A stretch of DNA of 32,000 nucleotides from Nostoc sp. PCC 7120 = FACHB-418. Its GTDB lineage: Bacteria; Cyanobacteriota; Cyanobacteriia; Cyanobacteriales; Nostocaceae. Under the pieces are notes generated by a model. It was not told where the DNA came from and ran no database searches. It saw only the letters and a program-made list of their open reading frames with translations. Location: contig NC_003272.1 of the NCBI RefSeq assembly GCF_000009705.1, positions 2,610,001 to 2,642,000 of the forward strand. The letters run 5' to 3'. Both the position numbers and the translations under genes were made by a program. How positions within the stretch are numbered: position 1 is the stretch's first letter; every line of letters begins with the position of its first letter. Shown one piece after another: positions 1,351 to 32,000 of the stretch.

Positions 1351-1700
1351 GATTTCTGGTTGATTCTCAATTACCTGCTCGACTTGCTCGATTCCTAGAA
1401 TTTGCGGGTTATGACACAATTCATACAAGAGATTTGCCTAATCGAAATGCTACATCAGATATAGAAATTAACGCGATATCAATACGAGATGAGCGCATAT
1501 TAATTACGAAGGATTCTGATTTTTTAAATTCTTTTTTAACGATTCAAAAACCGTTTAAATTATTACTTATAACAACAGGTAATATTAACAACTTAGAATT
1601 AGAAGCATTATTTGCAGCTAACTTAAAAGCTTTGGTCGAATTATTTGAGAGTCACTCCTATATTGAAATGAGTCGTGATTCAATTATTGCTCACCTGTAA
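1347..1700 (+). CDS. DUF5615 (Mut7-C / PIN-like) protein, putative toxin partner of DUF433
   Basis: MRFLVDSQLPARLARFLEFAGYDTIHTRDL...SDIEI...RILITKDSDF is the typical DUF5615 layout. The 4-nt overlap with the upstream DUF433 gene suggests translational coupling. Confidence 0.7.
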   Translation: MRFLVDSQLPARLARFLEFAGYDTIHTRDLPNRNATSDIEINAISIRDERILITKDSDFLNSFLTIQKPFKLLLITTGNINNLELEALFAANLKALVELFESHSYIEMSRDSIIAHL

Positions 1701-1962
1701 TTAAAACTGTACCTGTGTACACTGTTAGTCCATCTAAACGAGACGCACTACCAGAGAGAAACTTGTAGAAGTAATGTTGTAAACCTTGTGCGATCGCAAT
1801 AGAAATTATAATCCAGAAACCAAGGCTATCAGACAGACGAAAAAAAATCTCGCTCGATAAAAACCCTAGTAGGACTTTCACTGCTTATATCTTGAGAAAA
1901 TTTGAGCAGCGACTTAGAGCGATCGCGTCATAACCTGACACCCAAACAACTATACAGAACTA

Positions 1963-1984
1963 TTGATAAATACTATCATTAAGG
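1963..1984 (+). promoter_or_regulatory. Fur-box-like / conserved promoter motif upstream of AraC gene 1
   Basis: TTGATAAATACTATCATTAAGG recurs as TTGCGAAATAGTATCATTAAGT (8196..8217) and TTGAGAAATAATATTATTAATT (13723..13744), each upstream of an AraC paralogue. The core GATAAATACTATCATTAAG matches 13/19 positions of the classical Fur box GATAATGATAATCATTATC. Confidence 0.4.
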
Positions 1985-2057
1985 TAGTTACTTAATTACC
2001 CCTCCCTAAATTCATAACCAAAAAGTCAATTGATAACTGCCCACTAAAATATTGCTT

Positions 2058-3053
2058 ATGACCATTACCCTAACCCTAGCGGAAGAAGAAGAACTATATG
2101 CACAGGCAGCGCAAAACAGTATATATAAATCTGCGTTGCCATTCTTTGAATCTTGGAGCGAAATACCCAAGCAACTCGGTAAAGGCTATATACAATGGAT
2201 TGAGGTATATCCCGAACTTTGGTTAAAAATAGAGGAATATCAATATAGTGATGATGTCATATTTCAATACCCGGAATCAGAGCATCCTTTGCAATTTAGT
2301 GTTTTGACTTCAGGGATATGTAGAGATAATTTTGGGCAAGTGGGAGGCGGTTATACAGCAATTTCTGGCGGCGGAATCCAACCTTCTAAGAATATTTTTT
2401 ACACTAAATCCCAGAAAATTGTCTCCGTTGACATCCAGATGCCACCGCAATTACTGGCGACTTTTTTCCCTGGTCAGGATGGAGAAATTCCTCCCGAATT
2501 GACAATATTTGCCAAGGGTGAAGATTGGCAAACACTAATTTTCCCGGAAGCGACAACGGCAGTTAATTTAGTTGCCAGGCAAATCATCAATTGTCCCTAC
2601 GAAGGAATGACGAAACGGATGTATTTGCAGGGAAAAGTCATTGAATTAATGGCACTGCAACTAGCTCCTATTCTTGCCGAACACAAGAAAAGCCAACCAT
2701 CCCCACGTTTGCGTAGAGAAACCATTGACTCTATTTATCAAGCCAGGGAAATTTTACTCTCTCGGCTAGAAAATACGCCATCATTACTGGATTTAGCGCA
2801 AACTGTAGGAGTCAGTGAAAGAACCCTTCGCAGGGGTTTTCAAGAACTATTTAACACAACGGTGTTTGGGTATTTAACTAACCAAAGAATGGAAAAAGCC
2901 GAAAAATTATTGTGCTCCGGTCAATTTCCTATCACAGAAGTGGCAATGATGGTAGGTTATTCGAGTTCATCGCATTTTACCGCAGCTTTCAAGCGTCAAT
3001 TTGGCATTACCCCTAGAGAATGCGCGGCTGGTAAATTGTCCGTTTGGCGATAA
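2058..3053 (+). CDS. AraC-family transcriptional regulator, PchR/siderophore-responsive type (cassette 1)
   Basis: The C-terminal double HTH reads LLDLAQTVGVSERTLRRGFQELFNTTVFGYLTNQRMEKAEKLL...VAMMVGYSSSSHFTAAFKRQFGITP. It sits directly upstream of a TonB-dependent receptor. I prefer the ATG at 2058 to the TTG at 2052. Confidence 0.85.
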   Translation: MTITLTLAEEEELYAQAAQNSIYKSALPFFESWSEIPKQLGKGYIQWIEVYPELWLKIEEYQYSDDVIFQYPESEHPLQFSVLTSGICRDNFGQVGGGYTAISGGGIQPSKNIFYTKSQKIVSVDIQMPPQLLATFFPGQDGEIPPELTIFAKGEDWQTLIFPEATTAVNLVARQIINCPYEGMTKRMYLQGKVIELMALQLAPILAEHKKSQPSPRLRRETIDSIYQAREILLSRLENTPSLLDLAQTVGVSERTLRRGFQELFNTTVFGYLTNQRMEKAEKLLCSGQFPITEVAMMVGYSSSSHFTAAFKRQFGITPRECAAGKLSVWR

Positions 3054-18555: not shown

Positions 18556-19565
18556 CAACTCAAAAACTCTTATCCGATTGTCAATTTTGCTCTGTTGTTT
18601 CCAAAAATAACGGTGAAGACCCTATTGGTACAGCGAATACCAGCGATAATTGGTTAGTTTTAGAAGCCGCACTACCCTGGACAGAAGAACACTTGCACAG
18701 CGATCGCATTCTCAGCCAGATTCACGATTTATTTCATGAATTAGAAAATCGCCACATCCCAGTTATACCAATTGCGATCGCACCTGATCGGGAATATTCT
18801 GTACCAGGATATGTCCGCGCCTTACACTACAAACGCCCTACAAAAAGCTTTGCTGAGTTTGAAAAGCAGGAATTTCTGATTCCTGAAAGCCAAATCGGTC
18901 AGTTTACGTCGGGTTTCTTAGAATACCCCAATGACCTAGATCAATTTCAAACATACCAACAGCCTAAAAATCACATCCGTGAAATCATGGTTTGTACCCA
19001 CGGAAATGTCGATGTTGCTTGTTCTCGGTTTGGCTATCCTATCTATCAAAATTTACGCCAGAACTATGCAGCAAAATCTGCTGGACAGTTAAGAGTTTGG
19101 CGATGTTCTCACATTGGCGGTCATCAATTCGCACCGACTTTGTTTGATCTACCCACAGGACAGTTTTGGGGACATATTGAACCAGAGATTTTAGATGTCT
19201 TAGTTTGGCGTAACAGTCCAGTCAAACAACTGCGTCAATTTTATCGGGGTTGGTCGGGAATGACAAAATTTGAGCAAATAGTTGAGCGCGAGATTTGGAT
19301 GCAACATGGCTGGGAATGGCTTCAATACCAAAAATCCGGTCAAGTATTAGCAAAAGATACAACTAATGATGAATGGAATGCAGATTGGGCAGAAGTTCGT
19401 ATTGATTTCACCTCTCCAGATAACAGCATCCAAGGTAGTTATTTAGCAAGAGTTGAAGCTTGCTCTCAGGTAATGACTGTTTTTAATTCTGGTAAAGAGC
19501 AACCTTTGGAAACTGTAAAACAGTATCGCGTCAGTCAATTGACTCAGCAACTCATTAATATATAG
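18552..19565 (+). CDS. Sucrase/ferredoxin-like (Suc_Fer-like) thioredoxin-fold protein with an Apd1/Aim32-type [2Fe-2S] ligand motif
   Basis: The N-terminus EDPIGTANTSDNWLVLEAALPW is typical of the family. It carries CTHGNVDVAC (C-X8-C) followed about 30 residues later by HIGGH (H-X-G-G-H). The start overlaps the SBP-3 stop (ATGA). Confidence 0.7.
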   Translation: MTTQKLLSDCQFCSVVSKNNGEDPIGTANTSDNWLVLEAALPWTEEHLHSDRILSQIHDLFHELENRHIPVIPIAIAPDREYSVPGYVRALHYKRPTKSFAEFEKQEFLIPESQIGQFTSGFLEYPNDLDQFQTYQQPKNHIREIMVCTHGNVDVACSRFGYPIYQNLRQNYAAKSAGQLRVWRCSHIGGHQFAPTLFDLPTGQFWGHIEPEILDVLVWRNSPVKQLRQFYRGWSGMTKFEQIVEREIWMQHGWEWLQYQKSGQVLAKDTTNDEWNADWAEVRIDFTSPDNSIQGSYLARVEACSQVMTVFNSGKEQPLETVKQYRVSQLTQQLINI

Positions 19566-19586
19566 CCCCAATTACCCATATTTACC

Positions 19587-20894
19587 GTGCGTATTTTCAT
19601 GATTCTCTGGTGCGGTCAGATCGTCTCTGCGATCGGTAGTGCCATGACTCGCTTTGCTCTGACTATTTGGGTTTGGCAATTAACTGGAGAGGTAACAACC
19701 ATAGCCTTATTCAGTTTCTTTTACCAACTTCCACTTATCTTTGTTTCCCTATTTGCTGGCGTTATCGTAGACCGTTATAACCGCAAGTATCTAATAATTT
19801 TGGGTGATACCAGCGCCATTTTATGTACCATCATTATTGGACTACTCTATGGCACTAACTCTTTACAAATTTGGCATCTTTACGCTTTAATTGCCATTTC
19901 CGGTTGTTTTGGACATATCCAAAATCTTGCCTATTCTGCCTCTATTCCCCTCATCGTGCCGAAACAGCATTATACTCGCGCTAGTAGTATGGCTTCCTTG
20001 ATTGAACACGCTTCAGCAATTATTGCCCCAGCCTTAGCGGGTATTCTCTATCCACTAATTGGTTTATTGGGGATTACTTTTATTGATATTGTTACCTTTA
20101 CTGTTGCCGCAGTTACGGCTTTTCTCGTATCCATCCCCCAACCGCAACAGACAGAAACTACTAACCAAGCAAGTGAAACCTTATGGCAAAAGTTAGCTTT
20201 TGGGTTTAAATACATCCTCTCACGACCTAGTTTACTGGCTATGGCGATCGCCTTTTCCTGTTTTTGGTTTGCCCACCAAATAGCAGAGACTATATTTCAG
20301 CCGATGATTCTCGCCCGTACAGGTGGTAACACCGAGATTCTAGGTGTGGTGATGACGGCGGCTGGTGTGGGTGGCGTGGTTGGCGGTTCATTTTTAAGTA
20401 TTTGGGGCGGATTTAAGCGGCGAACTCACGGAATGCTGCTTGGTTTTATTGGTACTGGTTTGAGTAAAATTGCCTTAGGCATAGGTCAAATACCCTTAAT
20501 TTTGATTGGTACTAGCTTTTGTTCTGCTTTCAACCTACCCCTATTATTTAGTTCCAATAGTGCCATCTGGTATGCCAAAGTAGAGCCAAATATCCAAGGG
20601 CGGGTTTTTGCGGCTGACCATACAATTGGCATGATTATTGGTACAATTGCCAGTTTAACTGCTGGGCCACTAGCTGACAGAGTGTTTGAACCAGCCATGA
20701 AACCAGGAGAACTTTTAGCATTTATTTTTAGCCCTGTCTTTGGGATTGGTGCTGGTAGTGGTATGGCTCTTTTATATGTAATTACCGCTATTTTTATTGT
20801 ATTAGTTGGTATAAGTGGCTATGCCTTCCCAACTCTGCGAAATGTGGAAGATATCTTACCTGACCATGATGTGGCGATTAATAAAGGTGATTAA
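19587..20894 (+). CDS. MFS transporter (MFS_3 / EntS-like topology), siderophore-associated
   Basis: It is 435 aa and hydrophobic throughout, with about 12 predicted helices. It has the loop motif VDRYNRKYLIILGD after TM2. It uses a GTG start and is the last gene of the cassette-3 operon. Confidence 0.75.
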   Translation: MRIFMILWCGQIVSAIGSAMTRFALTIWVWQLTGEVTTIALFSFFYQLPLIFVSLFAGVIVDRYNRKYLIILGDTSAILCTIIIGLLYGTNSLQIWHLYALIAISGCFGHIQNLAYSASIPLIVPKQHYTRASSMASLIEHASAIIAPALAGILYPLIGLLGITFIDIVTFTVAAVTAFLVSIPQPQQTETTNQASETLWQKLAFGFKYILSRPSLLAMAIAFSCFWFAHQIAETIFQPMILARTGGNTEILGVVMTAAGVGGVVGGSFLSIWGGFKRRTHGMLLGFIGTGLSKIALGIGQIPLILIGTSFCSAFNLPLLFSSNSAIWYAKVEPNIQGRVFAADHTIGMIIGTIASLTAGPLADRVFEPAMKPGELLAFIFSPVFGIGAGSGMALLYVITAIFIVLVGISGYAFPTLRNVEDILPDHDVAINKGD

Positions 20895-20920
20895 CAAGCT
20901 ATATCACAAGCTATATCAAA

Positions 20921-20945
20921 GGATGATGGAGCGATCGCATCATCC
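20921..20945 (+). terminator. Hairpin downstream of the MFS gene (8-bp stem GGATGATG/CATCATCC, HIP1-containing loop)
   Basis: The sequence is ggatgatg-gagcgatcg-catcatcc, 27 nt after the stop codon. There is no clear U-tract, which is common in cyanobacteria. Confidence 0.3.
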
Positions 20946-20962
20946 ATACACTTAATTAATGA

Positions 20963-21091
20963 TAGGACTTACGCATCCCGGTTATCTGTTGAGACTGGGT
21001 GTAAGGGGGTAAGGGTATAGGGGTGTCAATGTTTAAAACTCTTACACCCCTCTCCAAACCCTTGATTTTTCGTTTTCATGCGTAAGTCCTA
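20963..21091. mobile_element. 129-bp MITE with 13-bp terminal inverted repeats TAGGACTTACGCA and a 5-bp target-site duplication AATGA
   Basis: The left end taggacttacgca (20963..20975) and the right end tgcgtaagtccta (21079..21091) are perfect reverse complements. AATGA occurs at 20958..20962 and 21092..21096. Confidence 0.75.
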
Positions 21092-21202
21092 AATGATATA
21101 GATTCCTTATTGCTGATATCCTCATGATTGTTGTAAATTAACTATTAACACTTTCATAGTTAAGAATAACTCGCAATTTCTTACTAAAATTGCCGTTAAA
21201 GC

Positions 21203-22228
21203 ATGACAAATATCCTGACGGAAGAGCAAATCAATCAAATTGAACAGGAAACTTTAGAAAATTTAGAGGTATCTTATAATACTAAAGGTTTTGACCAAAT
21301 TCAGAGAGTCCGCAACAGCTTATGTGATACTTGTTGCCAAGTAGTTGAATTCCGTCCAGGATTAATTCTAGAAATTTTTGATGATTATTACTACCAGCAA
21401 GTTAGTAGTAAAGTTGATCACTATGGTGGTTACGTACTAACAGCTAAATTTTATTTATCAGGTAATCATCATGTAATTTGTCCAGGGATTCCAGGAGTTA
21501 CAGAAAATTATCAAGAAACAGTAGGGAATAATTACCTATTCTACTTACCTGATATTGAAGAAATAGAACAATATTTTGCAGGCGATCGCATCTATCTAAT
21601 TAAAATTTGTATAGACATAGATTTCTTTAAATCCTTCATCGATGGACTAGAGCATCTACCAAAACTGTTACAGCCTTTTTTAGAAAGTGACTTTCCATCG
21701 CTATTTCACCTTCCAGTCGGTAAGATTACCCTACCTATGCAGACAGCATTACAGCAAATGCTCAATGTACCCTATCAAGGGATGATACAAAAAATGTATC
21801 TTGAAGGCAAGGTATTAGAATTGCTAGCTTTGCAGTTTGCTCAACTGATAGAAACCGAGGGAGATAAACAACCCCTCATTAATCTCAAAACGGGTGATGT
21901 TGAGAAAATTTATCATGCCAAGGATATTTTAACCAAAAACTATGATCATCCTCCCTCATTAATTGACTTAGCGAAAAAAGTTGGTATTAATGACAACAAA
22001 CTAAAGTACGGTTTTCGTGAAGTATTCGGAACTACAGTATTTGGATATTTGCGTGACTATCGCCTAGACATAGCGCGAAAGTTGCTACAAGAACAAAAGC
22101 AGAATGTGAGGACTGTAGTCAACACAGTTGGTTATGCCAATCAAAGCCACTTCGCCGCCGCATTTAAGCGTAAGTTTGGTATTACTCCCCAAGATTGTCG
22201 GTTAGGTCGATTTTTAGAAAAGTGTTAG
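21203..22228 (+). CDS. AraC-family transcriptional regulator, PchR-like, orphan fourth paralogue
   Basis: The central motif is VPYQGMIQKMYLEGKVLELLALQF and the HTH pair reads LIDLAKKVGINDNKLKYGFREVFGTTVFGYLRDYRLDIARKLL...GYANQSHFAAAFKRKFGITP. No receptor gene follows it. Confidence 0.8.
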   Translation: MTNILTEEQINQIEQETLENLEVSYNTKGFDQIQRVRNSLCDTCCQVVEFRPGLILEIFDDYYYQQVSSKVDHYGGYVLTAKFYLSGNHHVICPGIPGVTENYQETVGNNYLFYLPDIEEIEQYFAGDRIYLIKICIDIDFFKSFIDGLEHLPKLLQPFLESDFPSLFHLPVGKITLPMQTALQQMLNVPYQGMIQKMYLEGKVLELLALQFAQLIETEGDKQPLINLKTGDVEKIYHAKDILTKNYDHPPSLIDLAKKVGINDNKLKYGFREVFGTTVFGYLRDYRLDIARKLLQEQKQNVRTVVNTVGYANQSHFAAAFKRKFGITPQDCRLGRFLEKC

Positions 22229-22267
22229 AGGTTGTTTGAAAAGTGGTTAAGGAAAAATCACCGAAGA

Positions 22268-22446
22268 GGCAGAGGGGAAGGGGGCAGGGAGCAGGGGGAA
22301 CAAGCCCTTCTCCTCTGCGCGGAGCGTACCACTTCGTGGAAGCAAGCTACGCGTAGCGTCTCGTAGGCCCCGCCCATAAGCGGGCGTTTTTACTGGGGCT
22401 GAGTACAAGCTCTGTCTCAGTTTTCTCCCTTGCTCCCTGCTCCCCA
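22268..22446. repeat. Nostoc-type dispersed repeat block bounded by imperfect inverted GCAGGGAGCA-rich arms
   Basis: The left arm gggggcagggagcagggggaacaag pairs with the reverse complement of the right arm, ggggagcagggagcaagggagaaaac. The interior contains gctacgcgtagcgtctcgtagg-type motifs. Confidence 0.45.
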
Positions 22447-22455
22447 TTTTCTTAA

Positions 22456-22608
22456 CGTGAGTTCGATAAATTTGGAAGAACCCCCTCTCCAAACCTCTCC
22501 CCGACGCGGGGAGAGGCTTAAAACCCTGATTATTTGGTACTCACTGATAGATTTTCAGCCCCTTCCCTTGTAGGGAAGGGGTTGGGGTTAGGTTCCGTCG
22601 AATTCACG
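22456..22608. mobile_element. 153-bp MITE-like element with 11-bp terminal inverted repeats (CGTGAGTTCGA / TCGAATTCACG) and a 9-bp target duplication TTTTCTTAA
   Basis: TTTTCTTAA occurs at 22447..22455 and 22609..22617. The terminal repeats match at 10/11 positions. The interior holds two hairpins (ctctccccgacgcggggagag and ccccttcccttgtagggaagggg). Confidence 0.65.
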
Positions 22609-22723
22609 TTTTCTTAAGTATTTCTTCGAGAGTTTCAAAATTAAATCGCATGAAAAATTCCGAATTACCACCAATCTCGACTGTATCTCTCGTCAAAGGT
22701 GATATTTACAGACACAAAGAGAC

Positions 22724-24202
22724 ATGGCACAGATGAATGGCACAATGATGCAATACTTCCACTGGTACATCCCTAACGATGGGAACTTGTGGAGTAAAGT
22801 TGAGGCTTCAGCACCAGAATTAGCAGATGCAGGTTTTACAGCCATGTGGCTACCACCAGCCTACAAGGGCTTTGCTGGGTCGTTTGATGTGGGATATGGT
22901 GTTTACGACTTATTTGATTTAGGTGAGTTTGATCAAAAAGGCTCGGTGCGGACGAAATATGGTACACGTCAGCAGTATCTTGATGCGGTTAAATCTCTGC
23001 AAACCCATGGTCTACAAGTTTATGCTGATGCGGTACTAAATCATAAGATGGGTGGTGATGCAGTAGAAACACCAAAAGCCACTCCTTTTCCTCAAGACGA
23101 TCGCCTGAATCCTAAAGGTGGGTTACAAGATATTAAGACCTACACTCATTATAATTTCCCTGGACGGCAAGGCAAATATTCTAACTTTGAGTGGCATTGG
23201 TGGCATTTTGATGCTGTTGATTATAACGAATATAACAGTGGCGATCGCAGCACAGTTTACTTATTAGAAGGTAAAAACTTTGACGACTACGTAGCCTTAG
23301 AAAAAGGCAACTTTGCCTATTTGATGGGTTGTGATCTGGATTTTCAAAATGAGTGGGTGCGCGGTGAAGTTACTTACTGGGGTAAGTGGTGTCTTGACAC
23401 TACAAAAGTAGATGGTTTCCGCATCGATGCTATTAAACATATTTCCACATGGTTCTTTCCTGAATGGATAGATGCACTAGAACGCCATGCTGGTAAAGAT
23501 TTATTTATGGTAGGAGAGTATTGGTATAACGATATTAATACTCTGCTTTGGTATGTTGATGCTGTTCGTGGCAAAATGTCAGTTTTTGACGTACCACTAC
23601 ATTACAACTTCCATCAAGCCAGCAAATCTGGAGGCAATTATGATATGCGCCGGATTTTGGATGGCACAATGATGCAACAACGTCCTACCCATGCTGTGAC
23701 ATTTGTCGAAAATCATGATTCTCAGCCTTTGCAAGCTTTGGAATCTGTCGTTGAACCTTGGTTTAAACCCTTAGCTTACGCCATTATTTTGTTACGACAA
23801 GAAGGCTATCCTTGTGTCTTTCATGCTGACTACTACGGTGCAGAGTATGAAGACTGGGGGAAAGATGGCAATCGTTACAATATTTTTATGCCGTCCCACC
23901 GTTGGATAATTGATAAGTTACTTTATGCACGTAAACATTATGCTTATGGGCCACAATACAATTATTTAGACCATTGGAATACTATTGGTTGGACACGCTT
24001 AGGTGATGCAGATCATCCTCAAGGAATGGCTGTGATTATGAGTGATGGTTCAGAAGGTATTAAATGGATGGAAGTTGGTAAACCCAATACTAAGTTTATT
24101 GACTTAACTGAACATATCAAAGAAGCTGTATATACCAATGAATGGGGCTGGGGTGAATTTCGTTGTCTAGGCGGTTCAGTATCTGTTTGGGTGCAAGCGT
24201 AA
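22724..24202 (+). CDS. amyA: GH13 alpha-amylase, cytoplasmic AmyA / Bacillus liquefying-amylase type
   Basis: MNGTMMQYFHWYIPNDGNLW...MWLPPAYKG...GYGVYDLFDLGEFDQKGSVRTKYGT...DAVLNHK...GFRIDAIKH...FMVGEYW...FVENHDS carries all four conserved GH13 regions. There is no signal peptide. Confidence 0.9.
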   Translation: MAQMNGTMMQYFHWYIPNDGNLWSKVEASAPELADAGFTAMWLPPAYKGFAGSFDVGYGVYDLFDLGEFDQKGSVRTKYGTRQQYLDAVKSLQTHGLQVYADAVLNHKMGGDAVETPKATPFPQDDRLNPKGGLQDIKTYTHYNFPGRQGKYSNFEWHWWHFDAVDYNEYNSGDRSTVYLLEGKNFDDYVALEKGNFAYLMGCDLDFQNEWVRGEVTYWGKWCLDTTKVDGFRIDAIKHISTWFFPEWIDALERHAGKDLFMVGEYWYNDINTLLWYVDAVRGKMSVFDVPLHYNFHQASKSGGNYDMRRILDGTMMQQRPTHAVTFVENHDSQPLQALESVVEPWFKPLAYAIILLRQEGYPCVFHADYYGAEYEDWGKDGNRYNIFMPSHRWIIDKLLYARKHYAYGPQYNYLDHWNTIGWTRLGDADHPQGMAVIMSDGSEGIKWMEVGKPNTKFIDLTEHIKEAVYTNEWGWGEFRCLGGSVSVWVQA

Positions 24203-24315
24203 AATATTTAGAACCCCAACCTCGCAATGCTGCTATGCGGTCGCACCCATTTTAAACACTTGTGGTAAATCCACTATTGCCTCATCTTCTCTAAAGATTA
24301 ACTCCAAAAAAGTTT

Positions 24316-25233
24316 ATGAACACTGAGCAAGACAATGGAAATCCGATTAAAGAAGCTATAGAATCCCCGCTCATAAAACTAAAAACTAAGAAAAAGAGCG
24401 CGAAAAAGATCAAAAAACTCAAGCTAAAAAAACACACGACTGAAGGTGAAGGAAGTTCTAAAATATCCAATCGGTTCTACGAAAAAGAAATAGCCAAACT
24501 GCAATTAGAACTGGTCAAAATGCAATATTGGGTAAAGTTTACAGGTGCGCGCATCGTCATTATTTTTGAAGGACGGGATGCCGCAGGTAAGGGGGGTACG
24601 ATTAAACGCATTGCCGAGCCGTTAAATCCGCGTGGCTGCCGTATCGTCGCTTTAGGCACGCCCAGCGATCGTGAAAAGACCCAATGGTACTTCCAACGCT
24701 ATGTAACCCATCTGCCAGCTGCGGGTGAAATTGTTTTGTTTGACCGCAGTTGGTATAATCGTGCTGGGGTAGAAAATGTGATGGGCTTTTGCACAGAAGA
24801 ACAGTACAAGCATTTCATGCAAGATTGTCCAGAATTTGAACGGATGTTGGTGCGTGAGGGCATCATTTTATTGAAGTATTGGTTTTCTGTTAGCGATGAT
24901 GAGCAAGAACGGCGCTTTCAATCGAGAACCACTGATCCAGCTCGGCGGTGGAAACTCAGTCCGATGGATCTCGAATCGCGCGATCGCTGGGTGGAATACT
25001 CTAAAGCCAAGGATCTCATGTTTGCCCATACCAATATTCCCGAAGCACCCTGGTTCACCGTCGAAGCAGACGACAAAAAACGCGCTCGCCTGAATTGTGT
25101 TCACCACATCCTCAGCAAGATTCCCTATGTGGATATGACTCCACAACCCCTGGAACTGTCTCCCCGGAAGTCTGCCGATAGCTATGTCAGACCACCTCTA
25201 AATGAACAGTTCTTTGTACCACAGATTTATTAG
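24316..25233 (+). CDS. ppk2: Polyphosphate kinase 2 (PPK2 family), with a Lys-rich N-terminal tail
   Basis: FEGRDAAGKGGTIKRI is the Walker A motif. LNPRGCRIVALGTPSDREKTQWYFQRYVTHLPAAGEIVLFDRSWYNRAGVE and RWKLSPMDL are the hallmark PPK2 motifs. Confidence 0.9.
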   Translation: MNTEQDNGNPIKEAIESPLIKLKTKKKSAKKIKKLKLKKHTTEGEGSSKISNRFYEKEIAKLQLELVKMQYWVKFTGARIVIIFEGRDAAGKGGTIKRIAEPLNPRGCRIVALGTPSDREKTQWYFQRYVTHLPAAGEIVLFDRSWYNRAGVENVMGFCTEEQYKHFMQDCPEFERMLVREGIILLKYWFSVSDDEQERRFQSRTTDPARRWKLSPMDLESRDRWVEYSKAKDLMFAHTNIPEAPWFTVEADDKKRARLNCVHHILSKIPYVDMTPQPLELSPRKSADSYVRPPLNEQFFVPQIY

Positions 25234-25237
25234 GTAG

Positions 25238-25411
25238 TCGTTTTTTGGTGTCGATTCACTTTCTCAAGTCCATGCCCAGATGCTGCGGCATGGAACAGGT
25301 TATTATCTGGCGAATCGACGAGGGATTGATACCCGAACAATTCAGAGTTATTTGGGGCATAAATCAGGTATAGATACCCGCAATGGATTGGTTGCCAGAG
25401 AGCCTGCTTGA
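25238..25411 (+). pseudogene. C-terminal remnant of a tyrosine recombinase / phage-type integrase
   Basis: The plus-frame translation is ...VHAQMLRHGTGYYLANRRGIDTRTIQSYLGHKSGIDTRNGLVAREPA*. It carries the H-x-x-R and LGH motifs of box II but has no upstream catalytic core and no start codon. The ORF-track entry 25230..25424 (-) is its antisense shadow. Confidence 0.6.
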
Positions 25412-25533
25412 AATGCACTTTCATATAGCAATTATTAAACCAATTTGCAATAGCCTGCGGCTACTCCTGCGGAGAACTCGCAGAGTAGGCTAACGCCAAT
25501 GCAATTCGCAATCAGAGCGCTAGTTGTTGCAAC

Positions 25534-26316
25534 TTAAATCTGCGAACTTTGCATGACTACAGTTCCAGTGGGACGAGAGACATTGGGGTTGGCCTCCAGT
25601 GTGACAATTAACCCAGAAAATTGTGGGTGAGAAAACTCTTGGTACATTTGAGGAGTGAATGGTAATTCAAGGGAAGCATTTCCCCAAGAATAGGGCTTGA
25701 CTTCACCACAGGGTAACTTCTCATTCTTCACTATTGTCCATAAAAAGTAGACATAACCAGGAGGTGGGGCGGGAAGATTTTGGAACACCATTACCGCTTT
25801 TTGTTGTTCAGGATTGATTACTATACTTCCTGAACTGTTACTGGTAGAGCTGACTGATTCAAAGGTATACAATCGCGTTTGGGAATTCTGGAGTAGGCTT
25901 TTAACCGCTTGGGCTTGGGCAAAATCCTGCTGTAAACGCTGGTTTTCTGCTGTGACAATACTTAGATTTTGTCGTAGCCGATAGTAATCGACCCCCAAAA
26001 GTAACACAAATAGTGCAGCAATACTACCAGCAATTCTTCTCCATCGCAGTGGCATTTGCTTAACTACAGTAGCCCGTGTAGTTGAGTTTTCAGCTTGTTC
26101 TAGAATTTTGGGGAGTAAATGGGCTGGTGCTTCTACCTCAGTGAAGCCATCTAGCACTTGTCGCAGAACTTCCTGCAAATCATCAACTTCGGCAATCAGT
26201 TCTGGATGTTCATCAAGTAACAGCCGAAATTCTTGGGCTTCTTCAGGGGTGAGATCATCGACGACAAACCCCGCAGCTAAGTTTTTGATATGTTCGGGAT
26301 CAAAAGATTTATTCAT
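25534..26316 (-). CDS. Anti-sigma factor, single-pass membrane protein with RskA-like extracytoplasmic domain
   Basis: The N-terminal anti-sigma helix region reads LAAGFVVDDLTPEEAQEFRLLLDEHPELIAEVDDLQEVL and the TM helix reads IAGSIAALFVLLLGV. Its start overlaps the sigma gene stop by 8 nt (TATGAATAA). Confidence 0.7.
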   Translation of the reverse strand: MNKSFDPEHIKNLAAGFVVDDLTPEEAQEFRLLLDEHPELIAEVDDLQEVLRQVLDGFTEVEAPAHLLPKILEQAENSTTRATVVKQMPLRWRRIAGSIAALFVLLLGVDYYRLRQNLSIVTAENQRLQQDFAQAQAVKSLLQNSQTRLYTFESVSSTSNSSGSIVINPEQQKAVMVFQNLPAPPPGYVYFLWTIVKNEKLPCGEVKPYSWGNASLELPFTPQMYQEFSHPQFSGLIVTLEANPNVSRPTGTVVMQSSQI

Positions 26317-26914
26317 AGATTGACAAATCAGAATCTAGTAAGATGCGCTTAAGTTTGAGTAATCCTTGGCGGGTAGAGGTTTTGACTGTACCTAGAGGGA
26401 TATCAATTTGTTTGGCAATTTCTGACTGACTTAATCCTTGGTGATAAGCTAGTTCGATTACTTGGCGTTGTTTTTCGGGTAGTTGGGCTAAAGCGTTGTG
26501 AATGCGCCCCGATCGCTCGGCAAAACTCGCCTGTTCAACAGGTGTTGGCTCTGGTGCGGCTTCATTTGTCATGGTTTGTCCCCACTTTTCCACAAGTTTG
26601 AGTTGTCTAGTGCGAGCGCGAATTTTGTCGATGGCACGCGATCGCGTTATTGTCACCAAATAGCGCACAAAAAAGCGACAATCAGGATTACTGGATGCTT
26701 TGCGCCACAGTGTGAGAAAAATTTCCTGGGTTAAGTCTTCTGCTTCTTGGGAATCAGCCAGAATTTTCAAAGCCAATCCATAAACTAAGCGACCATGACG
26801 ATTGAATAAAACACTTAATGCCGCCGAATCGCCATTTTTGAGTCCCACAAATAAAGCTTCATCCGTCACATCGGTAAGCCCTGTTAAAGTCGACTGGGAT
26901 TGTTTAGGCTCCAT
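26309..26914 (-). CDS. ECF-type sigma-70 family RNA polymerase sigma factor (SigG-like pairing with the downstream anti-sigma gene)
   Basis: Region 2 reads LVYGLALKILADSQEAEDLTQEIFLTLW. Region 4 reads LPEKQRQVIELAYHQGLSQSEIAKQIDIPLGTVKTSTRQGLLKL. Confidence 0.85.
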   Translation of the reverse strand: MEPKQSQSTLTGLTDVTDEALFVGLKNGDSAALSVLFNRHGRLVYGLALKILADSQEAEDLTQEIFLTLWRKASSNPDCRFFVRYLVTITRSRAIDKIRARTRQLKLVEKWGQTMTNEAAPEPTPVEQASFAERSGRIHNALAQLPEKQRQVIELAYHQGLSQSEIAKQIDIPLGTVKTSTRQGLLKLKRILLDSDLSIYE

Positions 26915-27065
26915 GCGATTTTTAACCCATATCTAAACTAATACAGTCGCCAGTTTTGCATACTTTTTCTGTCATCACCTCGCTCCACAACGTACATAGA
27001 GATATGTTTGCTTAAAAAAGCCGTCTATATAATATGACGACTGAGGGAGGCGATCGGATTTAGTG

Positions 27066-27082
27066 TTAGATGGGGATATTTG
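27066..27082. repeat. Left copy of the exact 17-bp direct repeat TTAGATGGGGATATTTG
   Basis: An identical 17-mer occurs at 31232..31248. The two copies bracket the toxin-antitoxin (TA)/defence island. Confidence 0.8.
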
Positions 27083-27112
27083 GATGGGGAGGGGGATGTA
27101 GGTTATAATTCG

Positions 27113-27367
27113 TCAGGCGGTGTCGTCACCATTTGCAGATTTTGGCATCGACTTAATTAATGCCCTGAGTACCTTATTAACAGATTCTGGCGTTGTAAAA
27201 ACTTCAGCAACATCTTCATCTAAAACCACAACTTTTAATAGTTGCTTTCCACCATGAGTTGCAAAACGATTTGGCTTTGCCTTTTTATAATCAAAGTGGT
27301 ACTCACCTAGAAGCTCATCATTTGCATTTTGTGACTCTTCAAAAGGCGTTTTGCTCATAGTCTTCAC
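27113..27367 (-). CDS. brnA: BrnA-family antitoxin
   Basis: It is 84 aa. The motif YHFDYKKAKPNRFA resembles the BrnA DFSKAKxNPxA signature. It overlaps the BrnT gene by 29 nt. Confidence 0.7.
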   Translation of the reverse strand: MKTMSKTPFEESQNANDELLGEYHFDYKKAKPNRFATHGGKQLLKVVVLDEDVAEVFTTPESVNKVLRALIKSMPKSANGDDTA

Positions 27368-27617
27368 GCTCTCTTCGAGTGGCTAAACGGGCGCTGATAA
27401 TACGAATGGCGTTAGGGCGTTCTGTGAACGAAATTATTAGCAAGCGATTGTTTTGAGAATGCCCAATAATAATCTCTCGCTTCTCACCCACTGAGTGAGC
27501 TTCATCATCAAAAATCACTGCTAGCACATTATCGAAGACAGTCTTGGCTTCTTCAAAGCTGACACTGTGCTTCTTGAGGTTAGTAGCTGCTTTTGACTCA
27601 TCCCACTCAAATTCCAT
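27339..27617 (-). CDS. brnT: BrnT-family (DUF497) ribonuclease toxin
   Basis: MEFEWDESKAATNLKKHSVSFEEAKTVFDN...HSVGEKREIIIGHS...IRIISARLATRREREDY matches the BrnT consensus closely. Confidence 0.8.
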   Translation of the reverse strand: MEFEWDESKAATNLKKHSVSFEEAKTVFDNVLAVIFDDEAHSVGEKREIIIGHSQNNRLLIISFTERPNAIRIISARLATRREREDYEQNAF

Positions 27618-27831
27618 GTCATCATCATAAGCGATCGCCTTTCATCACACACACTTTTATTTATCAAGGTTACGTCCGGTGGGAGCGATCGCTTTTCTCA
27701 AAGATGTTTAACGACAAAGTTGTGCGGCAGCAGATAAACTCGAACACCAACCGACAAACTTTGTACCGTCCGCACCAACGTATTGTTAGCTGGCTTACCC
27801 CACAGATAGCCTTCAAGTACGATTAGAGGAT

Positions 27832-28230
27832 TCAAGGCTGAAAACGAAGGTGTTGAAGAGCGCGCACCTGAGCAATGGTTTCAAAGTCACGATCATTATG
27901 GATCAAAAGCAAATTATTTTCCAGTGCTACTTGAGCAATACAGCAATCGATTGGACTACGAACGATAAGCCCTTGGCGGCGCAAGTCAAAATAGATGCGG
28001 GCTGCTGCTTGCCAAGACTGAACTGTGAGTTCAACGTAATTTTGTGTTTCGAGGTAAGTAGAAAGGAGAGTCCATTCTTGCTCGTTTAGGCTGCCTTGAA
28101 GTAATTCAAGCTGAGTGAATCGGGTGAGTAAAACTTCACGCTCGGCGATCAGAGTTTCAAGTTGTTGGCGAACTTGATCACTGCGATCGCGAAACACGCC
28201 AATCCAGACCGATGTATCAATCAGCAGCAT
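27832..28230 (-). CDS. vapC: PIN-domain toxin, VapC family
   Basis: MLLIDTSVWIGVFRD...ELLQG...IDCCIAQVALENNLLLIHNDRDFE. I prefer the ATG at 28230, which gives a 4-14 nt overlap with vapB, over the extended 169-aa call. Confidence 0.8.
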   Translation of the reverse strand: MLLIDTSVWIGVFRDRSDQVRQQLETLIAEREVLLTRFTQLELLQGSLNEQEWTLLSTYLETQNYVELTVQSWQAAARIYFDLRRQGLIVRSPIDCCIAQVALENNLLLIHNDRDFETIAQVRALQHLRFQP

Positions 28231-28429
28231 GACGAGTTTCACGCAGGGCTTTATGGTCAAAGTCAGGAGCGAACTGAATTTGCCCCGCGAGGTCGAGGAG
28301 ATTTTTTTTGCGGCGCGATCGCACGAGTTCTTGCAGAGCAAAGTTCACCAGTTCCTCTTGGCTGGCAAGGTTGGTCAGTTGGCTGGCTTCGTTAAGCAGA
28401 GACTCGTCAAGGTTAAGAATGATTTGCAT
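28217..28429 (-). CDS. vapB: VapB-type antitoxin
   Basis: MQIILNLDESLLNEASQLTNLASQEELVNFALQELVRSRRKKNLLDLAG is typical of the short type II VapB antitoxins found upstream of PIN toxins. Confidence 0.7.
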   Translation of the reverse strand: MQIILNLDESLLNEASQLTNLASQEELVNFALQELVRSRRKKNLLDLAGQIQFAPDFDHKALRETRHAAD

Positions 28430-28537
28430 GGAATGGGAATGCGAAGTAAGCACAATTATTCTTTTTACATCTTAACCTTATGGACAACCTACCTCAATTC
28501 ACGTATTGGTTAACTGGCTTTTTACCGTAGTTTTAAG

Positions 28538-29218
28538 CTACTTTCTTTGACGCAAAGCCCTTTCAAATCGCTCTGCTAAGACAACAGTCATAAATGGCTC
28601 CATAAATCCTCCAAAGAATGGAATTGAACGCATCATAGCTAACGAGACAAGCGTTGGATCAACAGACTTGCTAAGAACTCCTAAAATTGCACTTTCGGCG
28701 GCTTTACGAGTATATGAGCGACAGATAACATTCGCATTTTTCATATACACCTCAATTAGATCGGATGTATTATTTACAGAAATTAGCTCAAGGTAAACAC
28801 GGTCACCTGGATTCAATAGCTCAATGCTCAAATCAAGTTCGCTATTCTGACGCTGTAACTCACTAATTTTTCCAAAGCCGACTTCAGGTTCAGTCTTTAT
28901 GCTGTAGCCAACGATCTTGGCATTATTATCAAGTCGTACCAAAACTGGTTGATTTCCAACTGCTTGGTTTCCAGAATTGAAAACTTCGAGATTGAACAGA
29001 AAAACAGATGTTGTTTGTTCTCCTGCATATTTCACTTCTAATTTACTCCGAATCGTATCTGAAAATGTTAACAGCGAAGATGCGTCATTGATGACACAAT
29101 CAATTCGTCTAACTCGGCTTGTTTTTTGCCAGATGAATATGGACGCTGCTGCTGTTATTGCTGCTCCAACAACTCCACCAATAATTGCAGCAATCGTAGG
29201 GTTCTCATACCAATTCAT
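28538..29218 (-). CDS. Hypothetical membrane protein: N-terminal TM helix, beta-rich middle, hydrophobic/amphipathic C-terminus; family not recognised
   Basis: It is 226 aa. The TM helix is PTIAAIIGGVVGAAITAAASIFIW. The middle shows an alternating polar/hydrophobic pattern (KLEVKYAGEQTTSVFLFNLEVFNSG...LDLSIELLNPGDRVYLELISV). The C-terminus reads LVSLAMMRSIPFFGGFMEPFMTVVLA. It lies on the same strand as, and downstream of, the ThsA/ThsB-like genes. Confidence 0.5.
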   Translation of the reverse strand: MNWYENPTIAAIIGGVVGAAITAAASIFIWQKTSRVRRIDCVINDASSLLTFSDTIRSKLEVKYAGEQTTSVFLFNLEVFNSGNQAVGNQPVLVRLDNNAKIVGYSIKTEPEVGFGKISELQRQNSELDLSIELLNPGDRVYLELISVNNTSDLIEVYMKNANVICRSYTRKAAESAILGVLSKSVDPTLVSLAMMRSIPFFGGFMEPFMTVVLAERFERALRQRK

Positions 29219-29515
29219 CTATTGCATTACTCCTCATCACGTGAACATAAATTTCCAGCTAACGGCTAAAGTGAGCGGCAGTAGATGTGACCGAAACGAA
29301 GACGATGACTCTATACTATCCGCTCCACTGTTTTGTTAGCCCACGCTGAGTCATTATTGCTATGCTTCTGAGATTGATCGATTTCCATTAAAAATACTCC
29401 TTCGCACTTAATTGCAACTTCTTCATACAAAACAATGAATCCTCTAATTACATTCACTATTCCATTAGGGGACTTCACAAAAGTTAGGACGGTGTTTCAT
29501 AATCTTTGCTACAAC

Positions 29516-30115
29516 TTACAAACCATTCTTAGCCGATTTAATATCCAACAGGTTAATTCTGTCTATCTTGCTTTCATGTATAATAATGTGCAATTTTGCT
29601 GGATATTTAAACCGCATCTCACTAATTCTAAACGTCCAAAGCATTATCTTCAACAAGTCTTCATCACTGATGTTTTTGTGTTCTTTGATGCGTGTTATTC
29701 CTGAACCAAATATAGGAACTGAGACGCTCTTTTGTGCGTACACCCTATTAACCTTATCCCAAAATCTAATTAAAAAACCGAGATAATCTGGCATTGTCAA
29801 CCAAGCTCTATTTTGCTCATCAAACTTTGAGAATGCAGTCAAAAGATATTCGTTGTAAACACAGACAGTGCCAATACTATATCGTTTCTTCTTACCAAAT
29901 CTTCTAGCTGTATTTTCATCTAAAGTTTCATCATCATCGAACGAATAGTTCTCTATGTATTTGTCTAATTCGGATACAGGAATGTCAAGATGCTTGGCAA
30001 TGAAAATTCCATTGAGCGACTGTTGAGAAATTATCTTGTCATCGACCTGAGTATCAAAATACTCATTAAATGCAATGACTTTGAATCCAGGCTGCTTAAA
30101 AATGTTACCTTTTCT
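29516..30115 (-). CDS. ThsA-type Macro (DUF6430-like) domain module, open frame without a canonical start, +1 relative to the upstream 2TM ORF
   Basis: The frame is open from 30115 and translates as RKGNIFKQPGFKVIAFNEYFDTQVDDKIISQQSLNGIFIAKHLD...GKKKRYSIGTVCVYNEYLLTAFSKFDEQNRAWLTMPDYLGFLIRFWDKV...SVSVPIFGSGITRIKEHKNISDEDLLKIMLWTFRISE...KLHIIIHES. These motifs match my recollection of the Thoeris ThsA Macro family. The ORF track lists only the part after an internal TTG (29516..29842). Confidence 0.6.
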   Translation of the reverse strand, partial: RKGNIFKQPGFKVIAFNEYFDTQVDDKIISQQSLNGIFIAKHLDIPVSELDKYIENYSFDDDETLDENTARRFGKKKRYSIGTVCVYNEYLLTAFSKFDEQNRAWLTMPDYLGFLIRFWDKVNRVYAQKSVSVPIFGSGITRIKEHKNISDEDLLKIMLWTFRISEMRFKYPAKLHIIIHESKIDRINLLDIKSAKNGL

Positions 30116-30353
30116 TTACGGATACAATGCTTCCCTCAACATCTAGATTGACTTCTTCTAAGTAATTGGATTTAAGCCACAGAAAAGCATATATAATAAG
30201 TAGTATTGCTGCAAAAATGATGCCAAGTGTTAGTTTTACCTCTTTAGGTATCTCAACAAATATCAGTAGAAGAGAAAGCCCTACACTTATCCATGATGTA
30301 AATTCTAGGAATTGTTTGATAATTCTATTATCAAGCAAATTAACTTTGACCAA
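30105..30353 (-). CDS. Two-TM-helix N-terminal module of a ThsA-like effector (terminated by a frame change)
   Basis: It is 82 aa with helices WISVGLSLLLIFVEI and LTLGIIFAAILLIIYAFLW. The TTG start is preceded by AGGAGGAGG. It ends ...DVEGSIVSVKKR-TAA exactly where full-length TM-Macro proteins would continue into the Macro domain. Confidence 0.6.
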   Translation of the reverse strand: MVKVNLLDNRIIKQFLEFTSWISVGLSLLLIFVEIPKEVKLTLGIIFAAILLIIYAFLWLKSNYLEEVNLDVEGSIVSVKKR

Positions 30354-30421
30354 AGCCTCCTCCTAAACTTCAATTTTCTTGTTTTTTACCAAAGGCTGTC
30401 ATACCAACGGTTAAGACATTG

Positions 30422-30982
30422 TTATCGATAAAGATACACATCTGGTGTTGTTTTCGTGTTTGTCATGAAGTCATTATTTTTCAGCGACTCAGTAATAAGA
30501 TATTTATTCATCGGGACATGTAAAGTTGGAACTTTATTCATTGATTCCCTTAGTATCGGTAGCTTATTCCATAAATTCTTAATCTCGTCTTTTAAAGAGC
30601 CGTTATGCAAGAGGCTTTCCTTGGTATCGTAGTCGGGGTAGATCACAATTACCGGAAGTCCAAGTGAATTTATTCCGTAATCTATTTCCTCTTTTAGGGC
30701 GCGAGAATTTACTGTCCTTTCGCTGAGGAATAGGATCACGTTCTTTGAGTTTCTAAGACGTTCTCGGAGCCTTGGCTTCAAGGTTAACTCCCAGTCACTG
30801 CCATCTCGAACGCTGTAAGTTTTACTATGAGAGTCGTTGAAGGGAAAGGATGAGTCACTTCCTTTCCAAGTTCTCAGCAAATTGTAGTAAACAAAGTCCT
30901 TGGTTGCGTATGCGCCTAAAGCACTTTCATTAAATGGTTCAGCAACGTAGAAAGCACAGTAATTTCCGTTTTTGTATGACAT
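30422..30982 (-). CDS. TIR-like domain protein (DUF1863 / ThsB-like)
   Basis: MSYKNGNYCAFYVAEPFNES...FPFNDSHSKTYSVRDGSDWE..LKPRLRERLRNSKNVILFLSERTVNSRALKEEIDYGINSLGLPVIVIYPDY parallels the ThsB layout: beta-1 FFSFHY, then NTSVTCVLIGSQTFNRRWVRYEI...GNKIIGIHI. It includes the conserved Glu position. The ATG at 30982 is preceded by GAGGAA. Confidence 0.65.
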   Translation of the reverse strand: MSYKNGNYCAFYVAEPFNESALGAYATKDFVYYNLLRTWKGSDSSFPFNDSHSKTYSVRDGSDWELTLKPRLRERLRNSKNVILFLSERTVNSRALKEEIDYGINSLGLPVIVIYPDYDTKESLLHNGSLKDEIKNLWNKLPILRESMNKVPTLHVPMNKYLITESLKNNDFMTNTKTTPDVYLYR

Positions 30983-31048
30983 TCTTTCCTCAATACTGCC
31001 TTTGTCAATGAACAATGATGCTTAAATTAAGGCTCGGCTAACTACTTA

Positions 31049-31232
31049 TTATACCCAATGTTCCATCTAATCCCCTTCCATAAGTGTTTATACTGAACTG
31101 TTCTGTATAATACCCTAAATTCCAGTATTATACCGAATCTTTCCTTATAAACAACCTTTTTAAGTGGTTTATACGGAAAATATTCCATATAAATCTTCAT
31201 ACAGGGTTATTCAAAAGAACTATTCCGTATTT
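31049..31232. promoter_or_regulatory. Periodic array of inverted 10-bp half-sites (TTATAC.GAA / TTC.GTATAA) upstream of the ThsB-like gene
   Basis: The pairs are TTATACCCAA-tg-TTCCATCTAA (31049), TTATACTGAA-ctg-TTCTGTATAA (31088), TTATACCGAA-tct-TTCCTTATAA (31128) and TTATACGGAA-aata-TTCCATATAA (31169). Starts are spaced 39, 40 and 41 bp apart. Extra half-sites include TTCCATAAG (31076), TTCCAGTAT (31120) and TTCCGTAT (31223). Confidence 0.5.
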
Positions 31233-31248
31233 TAGATGGGGATATTTG
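31232..31248. repeat. Right copy of the exact 17-bp direct repeat TTAGATGGGGATATTTG
   Basis: It is identical to 27066..27082. It lies immediately outside the half-site array and 13 bp from a MITE. Confidence 0.8.
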
Positions 31249-31261
31249 ATTTTAAATAAAC

Positions 31262-31386
31262 CAGGACTTACGCAAGTGTCACAATCGATATTTGGTGCGT
31301 GACGCTATAAATCTCATGACTACGTTCAAATACTTTTGCAGCGTCACACACCCTACGTGAAAAATATGCCAGTTGCGTAAGTCCTA
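31262..31386. mobile_element. 125-bp MITE with the same terminal inverted repeat family as 20963..21091 ((C/T)AGGACTTACGCAA) and a 5-bp target duplication TAAAC
   Basis: The left end is caggacttacgcaa and the right end is ttgcgtaagtccta. TAAAC occurs at 31257..31261 and 31387..31391. The interior differs from the first copy and has its own inverted repeat (ggtgcgtgacgct / agcgtcacacacc). Confidence 0.7.
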
Positions 31387-31725
31387 TAAACTTAATAATT
31401 AATTGGGATGTTGGGAATTCGTCAACGTTTTTTTGCTAATTCAAGAACAGCGATCGCTATTGTAACTCAATGACTCTCCAGATACCGATATCAATGTTTG
31501 AAAATAAGTCTCCTGACCTTGAATGAGGAGTTCCCGAAAGATACTTAAATATCAAAACTTTAACACGAAGAAAAAAGTTTGAATTTAATTAAATCCAATC
31601 TCGATCATCAGTCGTCTTAGTAAACAGATGCGTCACAATTGACCACTCCAGTACCCATCTCAGGTCAGCATTGTGGCAGCATATTGCAAATTAAACAGTT
31701 TTAGTCTGAGAATAGGAAGAATTTT

Positions 31726-32000
31726 ATGCACAAACGCGCAAACTTCTTGCTCAAAATTTGTTTGAGCAGCCTGGTTTTTACTGCATCAATATTAGCAACA
31801 ACCACAGCCAGTATTTCTGCAACCGAAGCTAAATCATCAATTACAAAAGTTGCTCAGGTAAATCCATCTACTGCTACTAGCAACTCTGTAGGCGGGCCGT
31901 TAGCTAAAGAACTTCAAGGAAAACCAGTTGTAGTAGACGTGTTTGCTACTTGGTGTGCTGGCTGTAAGAATATTGCTCCTACTTTGTCACAGTTGAAACA
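31726..32000 (+). CDS. Secreted thioredoxin-like / TlpA-type thiol-disulfide oxidoreductase, N-terminal part (gene continues past the window end)
   Basis: MHKRANFLLKICLSSLVFTASILATTTASISA is a signal peptide. It is followed by GKPVVVDVFATWCAGCKNIAPTLSQLK with a WCxxC active site. AGGAAG lies upstream of the ATG. Confidence 0.75.
   Translation, partial: MHKRANFLLKICLSSLVFTASILATTTASISATEAKSSITKVAQVNPSTATSNSVGGPLAKELQGKPVVVDVFATWCAGCKNIAPTLSQLK

Follow-up and report, generated by a model that had tools for sequence, protein, structure and literature searches.

In the reference-type lineage of Nostoc sp. PCC 7120, thsA, the effector gene of a type II Thoeris anti-phage system, has very probably undergone a genuine 1-nt insertion, a very recent one that is predicted to inactivate the gene. 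The broken allele almost certainly belongs to the PCC 7120 reference lineage. PCC 7120 is the standard model for heterocyst studies and is used in work on cyanophages, including A-1L, A-4L, and AN-15. The locus lies on the minus strand of the window, the whole 32,000-nt stretch of DNA that was analyzed (contig NC_003272.1, positions 2,610,001 to 2,642,000), and is a two-gene type II Thoeris system in which thsB, encoding a TIR protein, is followed by thsA, encoding a two-helix membrane module and a Macro domain. We would guess the PCC 7120 locus tags of the two genes to be about all2198-all2201, and a literature search on Thoeris in PCC 7120 gave nothing usable. The relevant features, in window coordinates, are listed here.

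30422..30982, minus strand: thsB (TIR-like sensor and signal synthase), intact, 186 aa.
30356..30364, minus strand: AGGAGGAGG, a Shine-Dalgarno-like element read from the sequence, with 2 nt between it and the TTG start of thsA.
30105..30353, minus strand: 5' thsA fragment, 82 aa, from TTG 30353 to TAA 30107..30105, ending ...VKKR*.
30110..30113, minus strand: AAAA run with one extra A (TTTT on the plus strand), AAA in sister genomes.
29516..30109, minus strand: 3' thsA fragment in the +1 frame with the Macro (signal-binding) domain; it starts at GGT, which encodes Gly82 in intact ThsA, and ends at the stop.
30101..30103, minus strand: ATT start codon of the annotated 195-aa protein, 1 nt past the TAA of the 82-aa ORF.

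The 82-aa ORF contains two predicted transmembrane helices, at about residues 18-35 and 41-60 as judged by eye, and its residues 1-81 are identical to those of intact ThsA (P0001/P0175, described below). At the junction the minus strand reads ...GTA AAG AAA AGG TAA, and the extra A falls at codons 81/82, that is, at the first Macro residues and directly after the membrane module. Behind a TAA at 30118..30116, the +1 frame stays open over 199 sense codons, beginning at 30115 and closed by the stop 29518..29516, and contains no ATG, GTG, or TTG over 91 codons, the first of these being TTG 29842. An earlier sequence-only reading of this DNA had described the stop, the A-run, the two frames, the ATT, and TTG 29842, and was correct on them in every detail.

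Type II Thoeris systems pair ThsB, a TIR protein, with ThsA, which comprises two transmembrane (TM) helices and a Macro domain; the signal, histidine-ADPR, is produced by the TIR protein, and the TM module is believed to act by impairing the membrane (bioRxiv 10.1101/2024.01.03.573942). In the systems characterized so far, the signal made by ThsB is bound by the Macro domain. The 186-aa ThsB form, indexed in 180 blocks of the contig collection, matches Pfam ThsB_TIR (PF08937, E 8e-27) and PADLOC ThsB (PDLC00421, E 6e-77, model positions 1-178 of 180), and the longest ORF of thsB reaches TTG 31015 (197 aa). Removal of one A from the AAAA run yields a repaired ThsA of 278 aa, which confirms the earlier proposal that a one-A deletion restores the single-chain TM-Macro architecture. 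The repaired protein matches PADLOC ThsA from end to end (PDLC00413, E 7e-126, model positions 1-278 of 278) and, over residues 77-259, the whole of Pfam ThsA_Macro (PF20016, E 3.4e-64, model positions 1-183 of 183); the latter match starts in the upstream frame and therefore spans the frame junction. Residues 61-278 align gap-free across the junction with PDB 8V6Q (E 1.3e-104, approximately 75% identity by eye), and gap-free alignments are also obtained with the solved structures 8V6S (E 1e-104) and 8R66 (E 1e-47), the last being that of the Bacillus amyloliquefaciens Y2 Thoeris system (bioRxiv 10.1101/2024.01.03.573942). Such a match for a frame-split ThsA is, as judged from these alignments, far beyond chance, and the PADLOC ThsA, PF20016, and 8V6Q matches bear out the ThsA-like TM-Macro identity that had been suggested for the effector. 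Two defining features of type II Thoeris, a ThsB with a TIR-like domain adjoining thsA and a C-terminal Macro domain (PF20016), are found in the window; the third, two TM helices and a Macro domain on one polypeptide, is found in the AAA sister genomes and not in the window.

The commoner of the two alleles is AAA. Its product, P0001 (278 aa), is 100% identical to the repaired ThsA and occurs on four JGI contigs syntenic with the window. The alignment of contig L001 with window positions 19516..32000 (12,485 bp) has 0 mismatches, and its sole gap is the extra A at 30110; contigs L003, L017-L019, and L021-L023 differ from the window by the single A only, and L002 has the same single gap at the A-run plus a private variant. 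Assemblies with AAA comprise ENA Illumina ones (PRJEB12287), the Logan assemblies SRR31130751 and SRR10208182, and JGI contigs; a few of the JGI contigs have a private variant, and otherwise all of these match the window except for the one A. Several contigs of one JGI project are noisy (L034, L004), and the 3-A allele is independent of those. An intact, M-start form (P0175) is held in NCBI under BAY67822.1, HBW29573.1, MBD2170086.1 (Anabaena sp. FACHB-709), and MBD2261493.1, with the record name 'MULTISPECIES: macro domain-containing protein [Nostocaceae]'; the 127 blocks that index it include chromosome-size contigs (longest 6,412,411 bp). A scan of the metagenome contig collection for the 3A/4A gap pattern gave no hit, which is uninformative, as that collection evidently does not include these samples.

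The reference genome from which the window is taken is presumably an old, Sanger-era sequence, and the many otherwise identical assemblies with AAA raise the question of a homopolymer sequencing or assembly error, the real genome having AAA and an intact thsA. Taken by themselves, the four JGI contigs with AAA would speak for such an error; the 82-aa product in 30 blocks and 11 contigs that match the window exactly speak against it. Over 2.2-4.1 kb, and including the AAAA, these 11 contigs (L006-L016) show 100.000% identity to the window; their sources are nine runs in the range SRR34939167 to SRR34939190, SRR6049612, and JGI 3300004930. All are de novo assemblies of reads generated by others, in at least three unrelated data sets. 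Since AAAA recurs in independent de novo assemblies, it is not a one-off error. The 82-aa thsA product is indexed in 30 blocks and is called on at least 24 other contigs. Nor do the five wild-type and 58 phage-resistant Nostoc 7120 substrains that were resequenced in PMC10811720 depart from BA000019 at this position. That work lists many homopolymer differences from BA000019, as an error would predict, but these fall in runs of 6-9 nt, and none of the 123 differences of the five wild-type substrains from BA000019 (Table S2) lies at the thsA A-run; the argument is one from the absence of the site from a difference list, and a 4-nt run is not error-prone. A homopolymer error, the first of the explanations offered from the sequence, is thus extremely unlikely and is refuted by the exact recovery of the 4-A form in at least 11 independent contigs. 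Both alleles, as called from consensus contigs and assemblies, are real. The sequence-only reading had proposed comparing the length of the A-run in related strains; the comparison did find a 3-A run, but the inference tied to such a finding, that of a simple error, fails.

Homologs of ThsA indicate which of the two alleles came first. Among the best 120 of 2,961 matches, 119 are single-chain proteins of 273-296 aa, nearly all of them 278 aa, and the one exception is a 203-aa protein (P0050) from a broken Fortiea gene. The 98%-identical locus of that organism, Fortiea sp. LEGE XX443, carries AAA. The single-chain homologs together with AAA in Fortiea therefore make AAA ancestral and AAAA derived, and establish, at the level of sequence comparison, that the intact allele is the ancestral state. 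Nothing else distinguishes the haplotypes over 12.5 kb, and a second lesion is absent from the Macro frame, from which it follows that the insertion is very recent. It is best read as belonging to the history of a single isolate with its sub-lines, a probable recent inactivating change in one laboratory lineage.

The favored explanation for the split is thus a genuine inactivating 1-nt insertion, one of the alternatives originally listed and there described as a defense gene in decay; it is favored in that both alleles are real and the intact form is ancestral. A change of AAA to AAAA at codons 81/82 of thsA would halt translation after 82 residues and part the Macro domain from the membrane module, so that the signal-binding domain would no longer be tethered to the TM module. 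The system would still sense and signal, yet would not execute. Given this separation of the Macro domain from the TM module, defense should be lost or strongly reduced, and Thoeris defense in 4-A lines would accordingly range from severely crippled to abolished. Spontaneous +1 slippage on AAA-A might yield full-length ThsA, and reinitiation at the ATT might yield unattached Macro domain, in either case in trace amounts at most; any such Macro domain could do no more than sequester signal.

Reinitiation at the ATT raises the possibility that the split gene encodes a two-polypeptide effector, in which termination-reinitiation at ATT 30103 would supply a 195-aa Macro protein that assembles non-covalently with the 82-aa TM peptide. 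The ATT lies 1 nt past the TAA with AAGG upstream, and initiation there, which had been put forward from the sequence, is exactly what public annotation assumes: the 195-aa protein P0177 (MFKQPGF...; NCBI, UniRef), called on a 6,413,771-bp chromosome, is the Macro frame read from ATT 30103. A functional two-chain effector, the other half of that proposal, finds no support. ATT is a poor initiator, no naturally split family member occurs among the best 120 of 2,961 homologs, and the only other short form, the 203-aa Fortiea protein P0050, stems from a gene with a nonsense codon. The 4-A allele is moreover one mutation away from an isogenic intact gene, which leaves no time for adaptation to a split form. 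A two-chain effector is therefore very unlikely, and P0177 is, to judge from its frame, the 3' part of the frameshifted thsA, an annotation work-around and an artefact worth correcting.

Programmed +1 frameshifting at AAA-AGG-UAA, in the manner of prfB or Ty1, would yield full-length ThsA as a regulated product. The geometry of the site formally fits such a mechanism, as tRNA-Lys can re-pair on the overlapping AAA, and the shifted product would equal wild-type ThsA. In a slippery-site test AAA-A permits re-pairing and is followed by AGG, the least used arginine codon in the window genes (4.9 per 1000, 9.6% of arginine codons). However, AGG is uncommon rather than rare, an ordinary gene in the window has AAA AGG in frame as well, and the stop codon is not in the A site but one codon beyond it. 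A Shine-Dalgarno-like stimulator was sought upstream of the shift site, in GUAUCCGUAAAG, and none was found; local RNA structure at the site was not significant (fold z = -1.09). Nor is the split conserved, with essentially all of the best 120 of 2,961 homologs encoded in a single frame as proteins of approximately 278 aa and the isogenic sister genomes likewise encoding ThsA in one frame. A programmed shift, raised as a possibility from the sequence, consequently has next to no probability, being absent from the best homologs and the isogenic genomes and having no stimulator. Low-level spontaneous +1 slippage may regenerate exact wild-type ThsA, and nothing marks such slippage as programmed.

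Further lesions are found in thsA. The same clone has a third allele, in which AAA is accompanied by the in-frame loss of 492 bp (window 29567..30058) and which encodes a 114-aa product, P0176. The deletion is present in L020 and L024-L033 and in 24 Logan contigs in all, which derive from three SRA series (SRR32409264-282, SRR32280514-524, and SRR20172384-385). It is codon-exact (..NEY|IDRINLL..), shows no microhomology, and keeps 15 + 16 codons of the annotated 195-aa ORF, and on these grounds may be an engineered knock-out rather than a spontaneous deletion. The Thoeris locus of Fortiea sp. LEGE XX443 (L005, NZ_JADEXZ010000151.1, 1400..2400), 98% identical to that of the window, is independently broken. 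In its thsA, TGG is changed to TAG at Trp59, and NCBI calls a 203-aa, ATT-start Macro protein (WP_370568084.1). Homology in its thsB stops at L005 position 2143 (window 30563), from which unrelated sequence extends to the contig end; a Pfam search of this foreign sequence, which replaces the 5' part of thsB, gave no match. P0178 (124 aa), which with its 13-bp deletion might pass for a fourth allele, is considered unreliable: its contig, L034, is noisy and has several other small deletions and mismatches.

The pattern of lesions could fit relaxed or negative selection on the effector, on what is thin evidence. A stronger version of this idea holds that thsA has been recurrently selected for inactivation in cultured 7120-type strains, the effector being costly or self-activating, with the extra A as one of several independent knock-outs (the others counted being the 492-bp deletion and Fortiea W59* with its truncated thsB) and the 4-A allele perhaps attenuated through slippage; we regard it as unlikely. 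Reversible ON/OFF phase variation of thsA through the A-run, in which a polyploid cyanobacterium would balance the cost of the effector against phage pressure, is decidedly improbable. Both run lengths do occur in an otherwise identical genome, and thsA is disrupted in further ways within the clone and in a relative. Known contingency loci, however, have tracts of about 7 nt or more, whereas the thsA tract is only 3 or 4 A long; no sample among the contigs fetched appears under both alleles, and one insertion event accounts for the data.

Several other genes are found in the neighborhood of the locus. Directly downstream of thsA lies a 226-aa ORF with a hydrophobic N-terminus (28538..29218, minus strand), which has no Pfam or PADLOC match and is conserved across all 7120-type contigs as well as in roughly a dozen related cluster members. 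Two toxin-antitoxin (TA) pairs lie just downstream of the Thoeris genes, also on the minus strand: a VapB/PIN pair (28453..27832) and BrnT with an 84-aa partner (27617..27113). The Fortiea contig L005 is without the 226-aa ORF and the VapBC pair. Thoeris and the two TA pairs form a small defense/TA islet adjoining an accessory sigma factor gene, an ECF sigma gene that is paired with an RskA-type anti-sigma gene (26914..25534 for the pair) and that we take to be sigI = all2193 of PCC 7120. Private variants in this pair fall at window 26246 and 26343..26361: L002 has CCC for CCCC in the RskA-type anti-sigma gene, and L004 lacks 19 bp close to the 3' end of the sigma gene and has one SNP at 31859. 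These private variants may be assembly errors, because L034, of the same JGI series, is clearly noisy.

If reference-type lines are without a working Thoeris II effector, the strains held by different laboratories differ in an anti-phage system. Lines that keep an intact thsA include FACHB-709, the genome with BAY67822.1, and many sequenced cultures. Were this so, the thsA allele difference could alter the results of phage host-range and resistance experiments. Type II Thoeris could also be tested in a cyanobacterium with the 4-A and 3-A alleles, which already exist as an isogenic pair. The thsA split is thus of practical use to those working with PCC 7120 and its cyanophages, while biologically it would be an ordinary recent pseudogenization.

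Compared with known systems, the case is an ordinary strain-specific pseudogene in a known defense system and is not mechanistically novel. The site resembles the frameshift site of prfB (RF2) in the possible re-pairing of the P-site tRNA in the +1 frame, a slowly decoded next codon, and a nearby stop; it differs from prfB in having no conservation among orthologs (best 120), no upstream Shine-Dalgarno-like stimulator, and a stop one codon past the A site. With the solved ThsA proteins (8V6Q, 8V6R, 8V6S; 8R66) the window shares the 2TM + Macro architecture and an adjacent gene for a ThsB TIR protein, but its TM and Macro parts lie in different frames rather than on a single chain. The microevolution of Nostoc 7120 substrains offers a parallel in that a small indel separates otherwise identical sub-lines of one isolate (PMC10811720); in contrast to the differences reported there, the extra A in thsA is absent from the 123 and separates reference-like lines from other collection strains and lines. 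Closest of all is the thsA allele of the sister strains, which has the same synteny, 0 mismatches in flanking DNA (up to 12.5 kb), and a protein that is 100% identical once the extra A is removed, and which differs in having AAA where the window has AAAA.
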